Source of the DNA: Alphaproteobacteria bacterium
GTDB taxonomy: Bacteria > Pseudomonadota > Alphaproteobacteria > UBA828
Assembly (NCBI GenBank): GCA_965220745.1
Contig: CBDCQT010000013.1
Coordinates: 1,017,339-1,081,338 of the forward strand
Reading direction: 5' to 3'
DNA length: 64,000 nt
Below the pieces are notes generated by a model. The model saw only the letters and a program-made list of their open reading frames with translations. It ran no database searches and was not told the origin of the DNA. Shown piece after piece: positions 11,180 to 17,631 of the stretch; position 1 is the first letter of the stretch; each line of letters opens with the position of its first letter. A program made the position numbers and the translations under genes.

Positions 11180-12706
11180 ATGTCAATACTGATTGAGGGT
11201 GCCACCATCGTCTCGATGGACCCGGAGCACGGAAGCGAGCCGTTTCAGGGCAACATCCTGATCGAGGGCGAGCGTATCGCCGCTGTTGGCGCGACGGGCG
11301 CCGACGTGGAGGCCGACCGGGTGATCTCCGGCGAGGGCAAGCTGGTGATCCCGGGCCTGATCAACGGCCACATCCACACGCCGGAAGCCTTCGCCAAGGG
11401 ACGCTATGACAACATGCCGCTGGAGCTCTGGATGACGCTCGCCTACGGCATCCTCGGCGCGGCCGAGCTTACGCCACGTATGATCTACCTGCGCTCCGCG
11501 CTTTGCGCCATGGACGCGATCAAGACGGGCGTCACGTTCTTCTCCGACGACATTCTCGAATTCCCGCTGCAGTCCATGGAGACCATCGGCGCGGTGTTCC
11601 AGGCCTACGAGGACGTGGGTTTGCGTGCCTCGATCTCGGGCCACGTGATCAACCGCAAGCTGCCCGACACGATCGTCTACTTGAACGACCTTCTGCCGGG
11701 CGATCTCAAGAGCGAGATCGACGAGATGGTGCCGCCGACGGCGGACGAGTTCACCGCGTTTTGCGAGGAGGCGCTCGGCCTCTATCACAACCGGGCCGGC
11801 CGGCTCCGCTTCATGCCGGCACCCTCCGGCCCCCAGCGCTGCACCGAGCCCCTGATGCACGCCGCCGACGAGTTCGCCCGCGCGAACGGGCTGCCCTTTC
11901 ACACCCACATCCTCGAATCGAAGGTGCAGGCGGTCACCGGCCGCGAGCTCTACGGCAAGACCCTGATCCAGTACATGCACGACCTCGGTCTGCTCACCCG
12001 CAACACGACCATCGCGCACGGCATCTGGCTCACCGACGACGACATCGCGCTGATGGGCGAGGCGCGCTGCTCGGTGGTCCACAACGCGCTCTCCAACCTC
12101 AAGCTCGGCTCCGGCATCTGCGCGGTGCGCCGGCTGCTCGATGCGGGCGTCAATCTCGCGTTGGGCTCCGACGGGTTATCCACCAGCGACACGCCGCGCA
12201 TGTTCAGCGTGATGCAGTGCGCGGGCCTGATGCACAACATCTCATCGCCCGACAACGCCTATTGGCTCGACGCCCACGAGGTGCTGCATGCGGCGACCCT
12301 CGGCGGCGCCTACAGCGTGCTCATGGAGGACGAGATCGGTTCGCTGGAGCCCGGCAAGCGCGCCGACCTGTCAATCCTCGACATGCGGACGGCCAACTTC
12401 ACGCCGCTCAACGACGTGCGCAACCACCTCGTCTATTGCGAGAACGGCTCCTCGGTGGAGACGGTGATCGTCAATGGCGAGATCATGGTGGAGGACGGCG
12501 AACTCACGCGGGTCGACGAGGCGGCGCTGATGGACGAGCTGCGCGACATGATGCCAACGATCCAGGCCGATCAGGAGCGGCTGGAGGCCAAGAACAAGGC
12601 GTTCATCCCGCCGCTCGCCGAGGTCTGGCGCCGCTGCGCCGAGACCGATATCGGCATCAACCGCTGGGGCAGCGACAATCAGCCGCGCTGGCCGACCAAC
12701 CGCTAG
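11180..12706 (+). CDS. Metal-dependent amidohydrolase/deaminase (MtaD/AtzA/TrzA-like)
   Basis: PGLINGHIH, HTHILES, IAHGIW, SNLKLGSG, LGSDG, GSLEPGKRAD. Confidence 0.88.
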   Translation: MSILIEGATIVSMDPEHGSEPFQGNILIEGERIAAVGATGADVEADRVISGEGKLVIPGLINGHIHTPEAFAKGRYDNMPLELWMTLAYGILGAAELTPRMIYLRSALCAMDAIKTGVTFFSDDILEFPLQSMETIGAVFQAYEDVGLRASISGHVINRKLPDTIVYLNDLLPGDLKSEIDEMVPPTADEFTAFCEEALGLYHNRAGRLRFMPAPSGPQRCTEPLMHAADEFARANGLPFHTHILESKVQAVTGRELYGKTLIQYMHDLGLLTRNTTIAHGIWLTDDDIALMGEARCSVVHNALSNLKLGSGICAVRRLLDAGVNLALGSDGLSTSDTPRMFSVMQCAGLMHNISSPDNAYWLDAHEVLHAATLGGAYSVLMEDEIGSLEPGKRADLSILDMRTANFTPLNDVRNHLVYCENGSSVETVIVNGEIMVEDGELTRVDEAALMDELRDMMPTIQADQERLEAKNKAFIPPLAEVWRRCAETDIGINRWGSDNQPRWPTNR

Positions 12707-12738
12707 AGGCACCGGCCGAGCGCGAAGAGGAGGCCGCC

Positions 12739-13539
12739 ATGACCCGCCCGGTGCGTGTCGCGGAGATCGACTGGACCGAGTACGACCGGCGCGTGCGGGA
12801 GGAGCAGCCGGTGGTGATCCTCCCGGTGGGCTCGCTGGAGCAGCACGGGCCCCACCTGCCCATGAACTGCGATGCCGCGATCCCGACCGCGCTTGCAGAG
12901 CGGGTCGCGGCACGCACCGGCGATCTGGTCGCGCCTACCCTCTGCTACGGCTACAAGTCGCAGCCGAAGTCCGGCGGCGGCAACCACTTTCCCGGCACCA
13001 CCAGCCTCGACGGCGAGACCCTGATCCGCATGGTCCGCGATATCGTCAGCGAGTTCGCCCGTCACGGCGTGCGCCGCATGGCGGTGGTGGACGGTCACTA
13101 CGAGAACAACATGTTTTTAGTGGAGGGCATCGACCTCGCCCTGCGCGGGCTCCGGCGTGACGGCATCGACGACATGCGGATCGCCAAGATTCCGTACTGG
13201 GAGTACGTCACCCAGGAGACCATGGACGCCGCCTGGCCCGAGGGCTTCCCCGGATGGCCGCTGGAGCATGCCGGCCTGATGGAAACCTCGGTCATGCTGC
13301 ACCTCTATCCGGAGCTCGTGGACATGACGAAGGCGCCCGGCCACCCGCCGGCCGACTTCCCGCTCTACGATATCTATCCGACGGACACCTCGCGGGTGCC
13401 CTGGACCGGCGCGCTCTCGCCTTCAATCGCCGCGACGGCGGAGAAGGGCGAGCGCTTCGTTGCCGACTACGTGGACGGCATGACCGCCGCGCTGATCCAG
13501 ATCTTCGGGTCGAGGCGCCAGGACATCGCGGCGGAATAG
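12739..13539 (+). CDS. crnA: Creatininase (creatinine amidohydrolase)
   Basis: PVGSLEQHGPH...D, YGYKSQPKSGGGNHFPGTTSLDG, GHYEN, GWPLEHAG..ETS; closely resembles Pseudomonas putida creatininase as I recall it. Confidence 0.9.
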   Translation: MTRPVRVAEIDWTEYDRRVREEQPVVILPVGSLEQHGPHLPMNCDAAIPTALAERVAARTGDLVAPTLCYGYKSQPKSGGGNHFPGTTSLDGETLIRMVRDIVSEFARHGVRRMAVVDGHYENNMFLVEGIDLALRGLRRDGIDDMRIAKIPYWEYVTQETMDAAWPEGFPGWPLEHAGLMETSVMLHLYPELVDMTKAPGHPPADFPLYDIYPTDTSRVPWTGALSPSIAATAEKGERFVADYVDGMTAALIQIFGSRRQDIAAE

Positions 13540-13554
13540 AAGGGGACGCCAGCC

Positions 13555-14520
13555 ATGAGCGAGGGCTTCTACGAGCCGGTCAGCGGCATGGACATGCCGC
13601 GCTTCAGCGCGATGCCGACCTTCATGCGGCTCCCCCACGTCACCGACTTCTCGGCCGTGGACATCGCGCTGGTGGGTGTGCCCTGGGACAACGGCACCAC
13701 CAACCGCGCCGGCGCCCGCCACGGCCCGCGCGAGATCCGCAACATGTCGAGCCTGATGCGGCGCACCCATCACACCCTCGGCATCTGCCCCTACGAGCTT
13801 TGCCGGGTGGCCGACTGTGGTGATGCCAGCATCAACCCGATCGACCTGCACGACACGATCGGGCGCATCGAGCGGTTTTTCACTGACCTGCACGCGGCCG
13901 GCGCGGTGCCGCTCTCCGCCGGCGGCGACCACCTGATCACGCTCCCGATCATGCGCGCCATCGCCAGGGACCGGCCGGTCGGCATGATCCACTTCGACGC
14001 CCATTCCGATACCTGGGACAGCTACTTCGGTGGCTACACGATCACCCACGGCACGCTCTTCCGCCGCGCGGTGGAGGAGGGGCTGCTGGACCCCAAGCGC
14101 ACCATCCAGATCGGCATTCGCGGCTCGGTCTACGACCTTCACGACCTGGACTTCGCGCGCGACTCGGGGATGCGTGTCGTCACCATCGAGGAGTACTTCG
14201 ATGTTGGCTGGGAGAAGGTGATTGCCGAGGCTCGCGCCGTGGTCGGCGACGGCCCGACCTACATCAGCTTCGACGTGGACGGGCTCGATCCGGTCTATGC
14301 GCCGGGCACCGGCACGCCCGAAATCGGCGGCTTCTCCACCCACGAGGCGCAACGGATGCTGCGCGCCACGCGCGGGCTCAACCTGGTGGGCGGCGACGTG
14401 GTGGAGGTGGCGCCGCCCTTCGACCCCAGCGGCAACACGGCGCTGGTGGGGGCGACGATGATGTTCGAAATCCTGTGCGTGTTGGCGGAGGCGGTGGCGG
14501 TGGCCGAGGCCAAGAGCTGA
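13555..14520 (+). CDS. Ureohydrolase (agmatinase / 3-guanidinopropionase GpuA-like)
   Basis: GVPWDNGTTNRAGARHGPR, GGDH, DAHSD, SFDVDGLDP, PGTGTPE. Confidence 0.9.
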   Translation: MSEGFYEPVSGMDMPRFSAMPTFMRLPHVTDFSAVDIALVGVPWDNGTTNRAGARHGPREIRNMSSLMRRTHHTLGICPYELCRVADCGDASINPIDLHDTIGRIERFFTDLHAAGAVPLSAGGDHLITLPIMRAIARDRPVGMIHFDAHSDTWDSYFGGYTITHGTLFRRAVEEGLLDPKRTIQIGIRGSVYDLHDLDFARDSGMRVVTIEEYFDVGWEKVIAEARAVVGDGPTYISFDVDGLDPVYAPGTGTPEIGGFSTHEAQRMLRATRGLNLVGGDVVEVAPPFDPSGNTALVGATMMFEILCVLAEAVAVAEAKS

Positions 14521-14534
14521 CCAGGGAGGGGACC

Positions 14535-15005
14535 ATGGATCACGAAGGCTACATGCGGCGCGCCATCGCGCTCTGCGAAGAGAAGATGGCGGCGGAGAAA
14601 GGCGGCTACTGCGCGACGATCATCGTGCGGGACGACGAGGTGATCGGCGAGGGCTGGAACAACGTGGCCGAGAACAGCGACGCCACCGGCCACTGCGAGA
14701 TCAACGCCATTCGCGACGCCGGCAAGCGCACCCGCAATTGGGACCTCTCCGGCTCGACCCTCTACACGACCTGGGAGCCCTGCGTCATGTGCGCGGCGGC
14801 GATCTGGTGGGCGCGAATCGACCAGGTGTTCTACGGCAATCTCCTCTCCCACGCGGCCGATCTCGGCATCGACCTCGCCGGGCTGGACAAAGAGGTCGCG
14901 ACGCCGAGCGAGCAGCGCGGCCGGCCCTACCGGCGCCTGCTGGGCGACGAGACCTACGCCATGTTCAGGGCGTGGTGGGACAGCGGGGACCGCACAACCA
15001 TTTGA
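14535..15005 (+). CDS. Zn-dependent nucleoside/guanine deaminase (CDA superfamily)
   Basis: DATGHCEINAIR and EPCVMC zinc motifs. Confidence 0.88.
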   Translation: MDHEGYMRRAIALCEEKMAAEKGGYCATIIVRDDEVIGEGWNNVAENSDATGHCEINAIRDAGKRTRNWDLSGSTLYTTWEPCVMCAAAIWWARIDQVFYGNLLSHAADLGIDLAGLDKEVATPSEQRGRPYRRLLGDETYAMFRAWWDSGDRTTI

Positions 15006-15011
15006 TGGCGC

Positions 15012-15040
15012 TTGCACCGCTGGAACGGTCGCGCCATATA
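15012..15040 (+). promoter_or_regulatory. Alphaproteobacterial sigma70-type promoter
   Basis: (C)TTGCAC-17 bp-CATATA upstream of the extended-SD small ORF. Confidence 0.65.
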
Positions 15041-15074
15041 CGACGTGTCGTCAACAACGAAAGGAGGTGATCCA

Positions 15075-15149
15075 GTGTCAGACTGTCCTAAACCGCGATC
15101 GGCGGTCATCGTGAGCTGGGTCTCCCCCTGCGATGGGGCCCACGGCTGA
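15075..15149 (+). CDS. 24-aa small ORF with 17-nt extended Shine-Dalgarno (rreB/rreR-like)
   Basis: GAAAGGAGGTGATCCAG (15059-15075) is the reverse complement of the 16S 3' end and runs into GTG; peptide MSDCPKPRSAVIVSWVSPCDGAHG. Confidence 0.7.
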   Translation: MSDCPKPRSAVIVSWVSPCDGAHG

Positions 15150-15185
15150 CGGTGACGACGCGATCTGCGGATCGCGGATTGACGG

Positions 15186-15216
15186 GGAAGGGCCGCCCCA
15201 GCCGGGCGGCCCTTCC
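15186..15216 (+). terminator. 13-bp GC hairpin closing the small transcript
   Basis: GGAAGGGCCGCCC-cagcc-GGGCGGCCCTTCC; weak U-tract. Confidence 0.65.
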
Positions 15217-15230
15217 AACGTTCCGAGCCC

Positions 15231-15770
15231 ATGACTGACGAAGTACCAGAGGGCGCCACACTCGGTGTCATCCCCGCCGGATTCTGGCGGCGGGTCGCGG
15301 CGTGGGTCATCGACACGATCATCGTGCTGGTGGGCGTCTACCTCGTCGGCTCGTTCCTGTGGCCCGACCTGGTGGAGACCACGACGCGCGTCTCGGAGAG
15401 CGATGGCGCGCGGCTGGAGGTGGTGAGCTATGCGCTCTCCTGGCTCGGCTCCATCGTCTTCGGCATCGCGCTCGGTGTCTACACGGCGCTGCAAGAGAGC
15501 AGTCGGGCCCAGGCGACCGTCGGCAAGCGCATGCTGGGGCTCCGGGTCACGGGTCTCGACGGCGGGCGCATCTCGCAGTTCACGGCGATCCTTCGCTGCT
15601 GGCCGCTCTGGCTCCCCGGCCTTATCAGCATGGTCGAGGGCCTGAATTACGTCGTCGGATTTGCGGCCATCGCCGCCTGCATCACGGTCGCTTTCACCCG
15701 CCGCAAGCAGGGCCTGCACGACATGCTGGCGCGCTGTTTGGTGGTGCGCCGGCCGCCGCGTGTCATATAA
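15231..15770 (+). CDS. RDD family membrane protein
   Basis: AGFWRRVAAWVID, QATVGKRMLGLRV, KQGLHDMLA. Confidence 0.9.
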   Translation: MTDEVPEGATLGVIPAGFWRRVAAWVIDTIIVLVGVYLVGSFLWPDLVETTTRVSESDGARLEVVSYALSWLGSIVFGIALGVYTALQESSRAQATVGKRMLGLRVTGLDGGRISQFTAILRCWPLWLPGLISMVEGLNYVVGFAAIAACITVAFTRRKQGLHDMLARCLVVRRPPRVI

Positions 15771-15919: not shown

Positions 15920-16555
15920 ATGACCTCAGAGATTGTCCGGGATCCACGCTTGGTTGACCGTAGGCTCCGGCAGGACTTCAGTACCAACCGTCAGACGTTC
16001 ATAGAGATTATTGCGGCCGCAGTCGCTGCGAGAGCGCGATGCACGTCCGACTCGCCGAGGTCGGCCGGCTCGTACTATGCGTGGGCAGAAGCGACAGCGA
16101 GGTTGCGCCAGATATTTCGACCGCAGGGCTGGGGCAGGAGTGATGACGAGGGAATCGAGACAATCGTCAACCACGACAGGCGCCTCAAAATTGCCGCACT
16201 CAGCACAGATGAAGGAACTGCTGATGTCAGCCGCCATCCCAAAAACCGGACGGTAAAAGGACCCGCCTCAGAGAGAGTTGTCCATCTGAACAACCAGCTC
16301 GAGTTTTTTGAGCCTGAAGAGATGGGGCCAGCCGTGGAATCCCAGTATTCCATGTGGTATCTGTGCATCTACGACGATGGCAAAAGAGTTCGGGCCGAAC
16401 TATCAAGACCAATCGAGTTCAAAGGCGGATACGTCACGCGGTTTGGCAAACGTATATTTCTTTTGCAAGACGGCGATTGGGAGAAGGTGATCGTAACTAA
16501 ACCGGATGCCGCAACCATACAAAGCAACTTTGAGATTGATGTGCGCCGCAAGTAG
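15920..16555 (+). CDS. Hypothetical protein, putative toxin/effector partner of the XRE-IrrE protein
   Basis: 211-aa lower-GC ORF with GAGGG RBS, 5 bp upstream of the XRE-IrrE gene; no recognised catalytic motif. Confidence 0.7.
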   Translation: MTSEIVRDPRLVDRRLRQDFSTNRQTFIEIIAAAVAARARCTSDSPRSAGSYYAWAEATARLRQIFRPQGWGRSDDEGIETIVNHDRRLKIAALSTDEGTADVSRHPKNRTVKGPASERVVHLNNQLEFFEPEEMGPAVESQYSMWYLCIYDDGKRVRAELSRPIEFKGGYVTRFGKRIFLLQDGDWEKVIVTKPDAATIQSNFEIDVRRK

Positions 16556-16560
16556 TAATC

Positions 16561-17631
16561 ATGTTCAATCCCTCTCGACTTGCTCTTGCGAGGAAACGCC
16601 GCCGATATACTAAGAAAGGGCTAGCCGAAGCGGTTGGAGTGACTCCGCGTTCAGTCCTGCGTTACGAGGCAGGAAAAATTGCGCCAACTAAAGAAGTAAC
16701 AGCACGCCTTTCTCAAATTCTCGACTTTCCAGAGCAGTTTTTTCGAGACGATGACATTGATGAGTTAAACGCGGAGGCCGCTAGCTTTAGAAGCCTTAGC
16801 TCAATTTCGGCAAGGGATCGAGATTCGGCACTGGCGGCTGGTAGTTTGTCTTTCCTGCTTGCGGACTGGGTATTGGAAAAGTTCGATTTGCCCGAGCCAG
16901 ATTTGCTCGATCTTGGCGGTGACACACCGGAAATCGCTTCGCGATCATTGCGGGAATATTGGGGCCTCGGAGAGCGGCCCATCAGCAATATGATACATCT
17001 ATTGGAAGCAAAGGGGGTGCGACTGTTTTCAATAGCAGAAAATACCGCTACTGTTGATGCGTTCTCGGTCTGGAGAGGAGAAACACCGTATATATTTCTG
17101 AATACAATGAAGACAGGGGAACGGAGTCGATATGACGCCGCGCATGAACTGGGGCACCTAGTGTTGCATCGCGAAGGCGGAACCAAAGGGCGAGCGGCCG
17201 AACATGAGGCAAATAATTTTGCGTCAGCTTTCTTGCTACCAGAGGCTGATATCATAGCTACTCTACCTCGCGTTCATACGCTCAATCAGGTCATAGAAGC
17301 AAAAAAGAGATGGTCTGTATCGGTTATGGCTCTTTTGCACCGACTAAGGCGGCTGGAGATAATGTCGGATTGGCAATATCGGATGTTTTGCATTGACGCG
17401 ACACGCCTTGGATACAGGCGCGCTGAACCATTTGGGATTGGCAGAGAGCGTTCAGTCGTGTGGCAAAAAGTGTTGACCATGTTGTGGAACGAGCGTGTTA
17501 CGAAAGCCGATATTGCAGAAGGTCTGCACATCACCCCCGATGAGGCTGAAAACCTTTTGTTCGGACTTACAGGTCAGCCGACCGGGGAACGGGTGGCCGA
17601 AGTCGACTCTGCCGTGAGGTTGGTTCAGTAA
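16561..17631 (+). CDS. XRE HTH fused to ImmA/IrrE Zn-metallopeptidase
   Basis: N-terminal HTH (LAEAVGVTPRSVLRYEAG), FRSL, LLEAKGV, AAHELGHLVLH, EANNFASAFLLP. Confidence 0.92.
   Translation: MFNPSRLALARKRRRYTKKGLAEAVGVTPRSVLRYEAGKIAPTKEVTARLSQILDFPEQFFRDDDIDELNAEAASFRSLSSISARDRDSALAAGSLSFLLADWVLEKFDLPEPDLLDLGGDTPEIASRSLREYWGLGERPISNMIHLLEAKGVRLFSIAENTATVDAFSVWRGETPYIFLNTMKTGERSRYDAAHELGHLVLHREGGTKGRAAEHEANNFASAFLLPEADIIATLPRVHTLNQVIEAKKRWSVSVMALLHRLRRLEIMSDWQYRMFCIDATRLGYRRAEPFGIGRERSVVWQKVLTMLWNERVTKADIAEGLHITPDEAENLLFGLTGQPTGERVAEVDSAVRLVQ

Follow-up and report, generated by a model that had tools for sequence, protein, structure and literature searches.

The element described here, found in an alphaproteobacterial genome of the UBA828 lineage, is probably (we would put it at roughly four chances in five) a stand-alone gene whose product is a small mRNA of about 170 nt, of the rre type and, to judge from its sequence, a diverged relative of the Caulobacter small RNA CC2171. 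The sequence anatomy of the element, its conservation and its homology to a known class are matters of observation. All coordinates are those of the window, by which we mean the whole stretch of 64,000 nucleotides that was analysed.

The rre and CC2171 RNAs bind ribosomes and are widespread in the class, and the copy in the window introduces no new principle. It is a diverged form carried by a whole genus and missed by the Rfam cut-off. In addition, in its class the open frame and the position of the stop are conserved and the amino-acid sequence is not, which limits the range of experiments by which the function could be found.

Anatomy of the element and its match to the 16S rRNA gene

The features of the element and its two flanking genes are collected in Table 1. 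A preliminary description of this DNA had listed a GTG start, an open frame of 24 codons, a small hairpin and a 13-bp terminal stem, and all of them are present as claimed. Position 15012, at which that description began, is the start of the -35-like box TTGCAC (15012-15017) and not the 5' end of the RNA, which is expected at about 15047. The distance from AGGAGG to GTG is 7 nt, and the G at 15075 is at the same time the last base of the 17-mer and the first base of the start codon. Hairpin P4 aligned to a hairpin of the Rfam model RF01867. The predicted RNA fold of the stretch has a z value of -4.28 and was better than those of all 200 of 200 shuffles.

Table 1. Features of the element and of the genes on either side of it (window coordinates).
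Feature	Position	Strand	Details
Cytidine/deoxycytidylate-type deaminase gene, upstream	14475..15005	+	Pfam PF00383, E 9.4e-24
Promoter-like element	15011..15040	+	-35-like CTTGCA/TTGCAC 15011-15017, 17-nt spacer, -10-like CCATAT/CATATA 15034-15040; putative function
Predicted small transcript, ~170 nt	15047..15220	+	Both ends putative: 5' set by the -10 box, 3' by the terminator stem
Extended Shine-Dalgarno, 17 nt, GAAAGGAGGTGATCCAG	15059..15075	+	Exact complement of own 16S gene 3' end
sORF, 24 codons, MSDCPKPRSAVIVSWVSPCDGAHG	15075..15149	+	GTG 15075-15077, TGA 15147-15149
P1 long-range helix, 5' strand (within codons 3-5)	15083..15087	+	Partner 15181-15185; outer helix of the Rfam model
Hairpin P2 (codons 6-11)	15092..15106	+	Consensus fold, 16 genus sequences
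Compound hairpin P3 (codons 12-24 and stop codon)	15108..15153	+	Consensus fold and single-sequence fold
Hairpin P4	15159..15176	+	7-bp stem CGCGATC 15159-15165 / GATCGCG 15170-15176, 4-nt loop TGCG
P1 long-range helix, 3' strand	15181..15185	+	Immediately 5' of terminator
Terminator-like stem, 13 bp, G+C-rich	15186..15216	+	Arms 15186-15198 and 15204-15216, 5-nt loop, without T-run
RDD-family membrane protein gene	15231..15770	+	Pfam PF06271, E 5.9e-25

The most conspicuous component of the element is the extended Shine-Dalgarno sequence. As had been claimed, the 17-mer is the reverse complement of the 3' end of the genome's own 16S gene, at 17 of 17 positions (L001, 1499-1515). This gene was located by the 14-nt core in the only assembled rRNA operon and confirmed with Rfam. 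It shares 91% identity with the 16S of an unclassified alphaproteobacterial MAG and 84-87% with those of Ancylobacter, Psychromarinibacter, Brevundimonas and, over a partial sequence, Falsiroseomonas. The exact 14-nt core has two sites in the 4.8-Mb assembly, the 16S gene and the element; the flanks of the 17-mer diverge from the 16S sequence on both sides, so that the element is not a 16S fragment. The Rfam small-subunit model ends at L001 1514, and if the mature 16S 3' end lies there the pairing would extend over 16 nt and not 17. Paired with the 16S tail, the 17-mer is predicted to form a duplex of 17 bp and -32.4 kcal/mol (AGGAGG alone, -9.2), and the predicted cost of opening the 17-mer from the folded RNA is about 7.1 kcal/mol. 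Within the predicted fold of the window RNA the core AGGA is mostly paired (probability of being unpaired 0.08-0.21), and, of the bases that precede the 17-mer or lie at its 5' edge, some (such as 15056-15057 and 15061) are predicted to be unpaired. This modelled pattern, with a 5' edge less paired than the core, would resemble the "seed" model put forward for rreB (Hahn et al., 2016; PMC5711450, accessible part of the text).

Conservation, neighbouring genes and transcript data

A search for the 19-mer (the 17-mer plus TG), allowing up to one mismatch, found one copy each in 16 of the 20 other genomes of the genus. With the RF01867 model the element was found in 17 of them, the gain being G013, whose copy has a 1-base insertion ahead of the GTG. 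In the incomplete genome G010 (62% complete) a contig opens with the 3' half of the RNA, with the RDD gene adjoining, which brings the total to 18 of 20, all at the same site. Every one of the 18 full-length copies in the genus (G013 included) has an sORF of 24 codons, and P4, the terminator and the promoter-like element are almost invariant across them. Two genomes that are complete single contigs, G016 and G017, gave no match by either the pattern or the RF01867 model, and the RNA may thus be dispensable.

Chance has to be considered for a motif of this kind, or an assembly-derived piece of 16S rDNA, as 17 shuffled versions of the window out of 100 contained a 14-mer with up to two mismatches. 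The match is, however, exact over 17 nt with flanks that are not 16S, the reversed-pattern control gave no matches in 41 genomes and none in 401, and the syntenic genomes include single-contig assemblies. We regard such an origin as hardly credible; the genus-wide syntenic conservation excludes the chance or artefactual match that the preliminary description had named as its possible refutation.

Beyond the genus, a copy was present in two of the four other genera tested within the same family. One of these, G022 (a 1.6-Mb, A+T-rich genome), has a canonical CC2171-type copy at L146 1501-1668 (60.7 bits), in which a frame of 25 codons opens with ATG and the 17-mer deviates at one position (GGTGGTCC). 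When genomes were sampled evenly across the class, 46 of 400 others carried the 19-mer with up to one mismatch or, counted by genus, 40 of 295 genera including that of the window.

The immediate surroundings of the element are constant within the genus. In each of the 18 loci compared within the genus (that of the window included) the RNA is followed by the RDD gene, and in 17 of them it is preceded by the deaminase gene, which in one of these 17 is matched by a short piece of 47% identity only. Further away in the window, a gene at 16561-17631 encodes an N-terminal helix-turn-helix and a Peptidase_M78 (IrrE-like) domain, and the 211-aa ORF ahead of it (15920-16555) matched no Pfam family. On the other side, two long ORFs, 11180-12706 and 11503-13539, overlap in different frames; the creatininase domain of the latter is confined to its C-terminal part (residues 420-663).

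The proximity of the RDD gene suggests another reading, in which the element is mainly a 5' leader or attenuator acting in cis and ribosome docking sets the read-through of the stem at 15186-15216 into that gene. The gene starts 14 nt past this stem, no promoter is visible between the two (15217-15233) and one of its own would not fit; it accompanies the RNA throughout the genus loci and in G010 as well, the stem is devoid of a T-run, and one RNA-library contig of a relative (15050-15366) crosses it. Where the RNA is missing, in G016 and G017 (L167 and L168), the RDD homologue overlaps the stop of a different upstream gene, with which it is probably co-transcribed. Against this, neither the RDD nor the deaminase gene was found beside the RNA in any of the 6 loci examined outside the genus (1.5-kb flanks), and the genomic context of rre genes varies between lineages (Hahn et al., 2016; PMC5711450, accessible part). 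Since the context of the RNA is not conserved outside the genus, leading the RDD gene cannot be the function of the family as a whole. The stem, moreover, is 13 bp long and G+C-rich, single transcripts cannot be demonstrated by assembled contigs, and the homologues of the element are discrete small RNAs on Northern blots: rreB in B. japonicum (PMC5711450, accessible part) and CC2171 in Methylorubrum extorquens, with expression of CC2171 in Caulobacter cited in the same preprint (bioRxiv 10.1101/2022.01.24.477521, as far as its accessible text goes). A role mainly as leader of the RDD gene is for these reasons improbable, and we continue with the reading of the element as a small mRNA gene in its own right.

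As for the promoter that had been announced in the preliminary description, a CTTGC...GCGCCATATAC promoter-like element is kept in 17 of the 17 genus loci compared, but a generic scan for sigma-70 promoters and terminators between 14400 and 15800 called neither. The lack of a call is explained by a -10 box that does not have the letters required by the scan and by a stem that has no T-run; with the scan empty, the promoter assignment rests on conservation. In 12 RNA runs just 5-9% of the sampled words of the stretch were present. Assembled contigs of relatives, at 90-96% identity, lie over the RNA in three of the four runs compared (X1, X2 and X8, not X3). The RNA-library contigs over the element span 15011-15169, 15050-15366 and 15095-15241; one begins 5' of the expected start of the RNA and another extends into the RDD gene. 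Assembled contigs carry no information on transcript ends, strand or single transcripts, and as the neighbouring genes are also covered by contigs of this kind, neither a transcript nor its ends are demonstrated by them.

Constraint on the RNA and on the open frame

The diversity of the peptides was examined in 136 elements, namely at least 116 loci with the exact 19-mer (one genome per species) and 20 loci of relatives. Among the matches listed, 16 encode an rreB-like peptide of 14 aa, 24 an rreR-like peptide of 18 aa, 81 a peptide of 21-30 aa of the form 'MS[H/D]C..PRS....W...' and 15 other peptides. The peptide of the window falls in the largest of these classes (81 of 136 among the matches listed, 21-30 codons) and not in the 14-aa or the 18-aa class. 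Again among the matches listed, record titles in this class include Caulobacter, Brevundimonas, Phenylobacterium, Methylobacterium, Bosea, Ancylobacter, Microvirga, Acetobacteraceae, Rhizomicrobium, Dongiaceae and Sphingomonadaceae, and the nearest RNAs beyond the genus come from Ancylobacter, where the peptides likewise begin with MSD. The earlier idea of a lineage-specific variant with a longer peptide has therefore to be abandoned, as the class spans Caulobacter, Methylobacterium, Ancylobacter and others and is the most widespread one among the matches listed. By sequence comparison, this 21-30-aa class corresponds to the CC2171 family of Rfam.

Some matches carry titles from outside the Alphaproteobacteria. 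Four MAG contigs labelled Burkholderiales, Bordetella or Nitrosomonadales (L042, L047, L117 and L137) have the same 17-mer and GTG at about 301-319, preceded by a shared TGCTACACT box and a CAACCAC leader and followed by a frame of 24-26 codons beginning with MRD or MRE and then a terminator with a T-run. They look like a separate rre-like class outside the Alphaproteobacteria. The exact 19-mer also appears under the titles Streptomyces (L069), Phycisphaerales (L040 and L106), Bdellovibrionota (L059), Methylomirabilis (L093) and Parcubacteria (L110). L059 (an ORF of more than 100 aa) and L069 (51 aa) may be ordinary genes with a long Shine-Dalgarno sequence, and L110, whose peptide is of a typical alphaproteobacterial kind, may come from a contig that was binned wrongly.

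Among the matches listed, codons 2-4 of the class are fixed at the nucleotide level (TCT in 71 of 80, CAT in 59 of 80 with CAC never, TGT in 57 of 80), and this despite the G+C-rich genomes, which points to a constraint on the RNA. The bases of these codons form the 5' strand of P1, and the 3' strand of P1 is the conserved segment before the terminator. Pairing was assessed in 55 class members among the matches listed, in P1, a small GGA/UCC hairpin and the terminator, the MAFFT alignment being unreliable in the middle of the RNA. For P1 and the terminator, 89.6% of cells are paired, vs. 26-56% in slid controls, and doubly changed cells number 52 vs. 13.6 in shuffles, a value reached in 0 of 500 shuffles. 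The two parts of P1 are paired in 83.5% and 92.0% of cells, with changes on both sides, and nine stem pairs of the terminator show changes on both sides. One such change, from U-A to C-G in P1, is specific to the genus of the window and turns His3 into Asp3. The consensus fold built from the genus only (P2 included) has a double change in 1 of 45 pairs, variation too small for a covariation test.

The open frame itself is also maintained. Among the matches listed, TGG is in frame in 65 of the 70 sORFs that hold the CTGG anchor once, at six different in-frame distances, and of the 16 distinct gap runs that a frame-blind alignment of the nucleotides contains, 13 have lengths divisible by 3. The first stop in frame 0 lies at codons 21-30 (interquartile range 23-25) and may be any of the three stop codons (TGA 47, TAA 18, TAG 13), whereas the stops in frames +1 and +2 are scattered. 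These figures are to be read with the definition of the class in mind, which demanded 20-30 codons and left two more MS-starting sORFs (18 and 43 codons) outside, and the frame and pairing counts are not independent, the sequences being related. The conservation of the frame is not absolute, as three loci depart from the register of the anchor: in L024 one extra nucleotide follows codon 5 and the peptide, of 27 aa, is a different one, and in Brevundimonas L061 and L105 the CTGG is one base off frame with the 21-codon frame kept.

A constant frame and stop, together with sORFs conserved within clades in the rre genes (Hahn et al., 2016; PMC5711450, accessible part), are what would be expected if the product were the 24-aa peptide, for instance a metal- or redox-active micropeptide with two cysteines, the RNA features merely tuning its expression. 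The amino-acid sequence does not behave in this way. The two cysteines highlighted in the preliminary description are indeed there in the window, but several genus genomes have Y or S in place of Cys4 and S, W or L in place of Cys19. Variable sites in the 17 genus copies of the sORF number 9/14/10 by codon position (entropy 4.4/11.3/6.4), the second position being the most variable, unlike the RDD gene of the same genomes, used as a coding control, with 54/50/82. Among the codons that differ, the real frame has no larger a share of synonymous changes than the other frames, either in the class (0.102 vs. 0.153 and 0.126, among the matches listed) or within the genus (0.174 vs. 0.169 and 0.347). 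Pfam and NCBIfam scans of the 24-aa peptide returned no family, and the RreB and RreR peptides are unstructured in solution (PMC5711450, accessible part). With the nucleotide-level fixation of codons 2-4 added, a functional micropeptide seems to us quite unlikely. The comparison of related genomes proposed in the preliminary description thus gave two answers, a motif present in 18 of the 20 other genomes of the genus and a peptide sequence with no sign of selection of the protein type. These observations taken together suggest, on the grounds of sequence comparison, that what is under selection is the RNA, the open frame and the position of the stop rather than the sequence of the peptide.

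For the small mRNA, the experiments on rreB and the anatomy of the element suggest the following sequence of events as the most likely. A housekeeping-type promoter would give rise to an extensively folded RNA. Pairing with the free 3' tail of the 16S rRNA in the 30S subunit would be seeded by the A-rich bases on the 5' side of the 17-mer, and the duplex would then extend to 16-17 bp, reaching the first base of the GUG. A duplex of this length would dock the RNA very tightly on the 30S. Initiation would presumably be inefficient owing to the over-long duplex, the GUG start and the location of P1 8 nt past the start codon, where accommodation of the mRNA in the 30S channel would have to compete with the fold. 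Occasional translation of the 24-codon frame would unwind the fold and probably trigger the decay of the RNA. A more tentative proposal, to which we give a minority chance, is that throughout the CC2171 class the peptide is a by-product and that what is kept is an RNA occupying the entire anti-Shine-Dalgarno tail in a fraction of the 30S subunits, with a frame of about 21-30 codons whose stop is fixed within the fold. Were this so, rare translation would strip the RNA from the ribosome and destroy it, and the element would be a self-clearing ligand of the ribosome or a gauge of free 30S, not a protein gene.

Comparison with CC2171, rreB and rreR

At a relaxed Rfam threshold, RF01867 (Caulobacter sRNA CC2171) matched the window at 15052-15213 with 64.8 bits (E 1.9e-12), over positions 1-159 of the 159 of the model. 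The gathering cut-off is 75 bits, so by Rfam's rule the element is a diverged relative of CC2171 and not a member. The window and the 17 positive genomes of the genus all score below this cut-off (50.8-68.2 bits), and standard annotation would consequently miss the element in the whole genus. G038, from another family of the class, scored 90.5 bits and, in a control set of 14 genomes, Caulobacter vibrioides was above the cut-off. Thermus thermophilus gave a signal below the cut-off in the same set.

The consensus of RF01867 opens with the same leader, 17-mer and GUG as the window, and the order of P1, inner hairpins and terminator is the same. The Caulobacter and Caulobacteraceae loci L056, L073 and L074 share the 'MS.C..PRS..W' peptide class of the window. 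The differences are that codon 3 is GAC or GAA in the genus of the window vs. the near-invariant CAT, that P1 of the window has 5 of the 7 pairs of the model, with a compensating C-G, and that the Rfam entry is a non-coding sRNA whereas a conserved open frame is carried. The literatures on the CC2171 sRNA and on the rre mRNAs appear to describe one family. A search for follow-up work on rreB/rreR or for the function of CC2171 returned only the 2016 paper, the articles citing it, and listings or Northern validation of CC2171. The accessible part of the text of PMC5711450 contains no mention of CC2171 or Rfam; the extended alignments in its supplements, which lie outside that part, may already show the same peptide class.

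The rre genes themselves were described as rreB in Bradyrhizobiaceae, with a 14-aa peptide, and rreR in the Rhodobacter/Roseobacter group (Rhodobacterales), with 18 aa (Hahn et al., 2016; PMC5711450, on whose accessible part the whole of this comparison draws). Overproduction of rreB left growth unchanged, from which Hahn et al. (PMC5711450) concluded that simple ribosome recruitment is not its major function, and turning the start codon into a stop codon stabilised the RNA. The unchanged growth argues against plain sequestration of ribosomes, the possible role that the preliminary description had suggested for the element. Co-sedimentation with the 30S, weak translation and start-codon-dependent decay have been demonstrated for rreB only. 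The 14-aa peptide of rreB is unrelated to that of the window and the genomic context is not the same, and the 18-aa peptide of rreR has no sequence relation to it either. The architecture for which the preliminary description had invoked rreB and rreR is, on the other hand, borne out. The element shares with rreB a 17-nt complement of the 16S 3' end that closes on the G of the GTG, the 7-nt spacing between AGGAGG and the start, and a small ORF. Its predicted transcript would also match rreB in size (about 165-175 nt) and in having a promoter and a terminator to itself. With rreR it has in common the architecture of the ribosome-binding site and the organisation as a small stand-alone gene.
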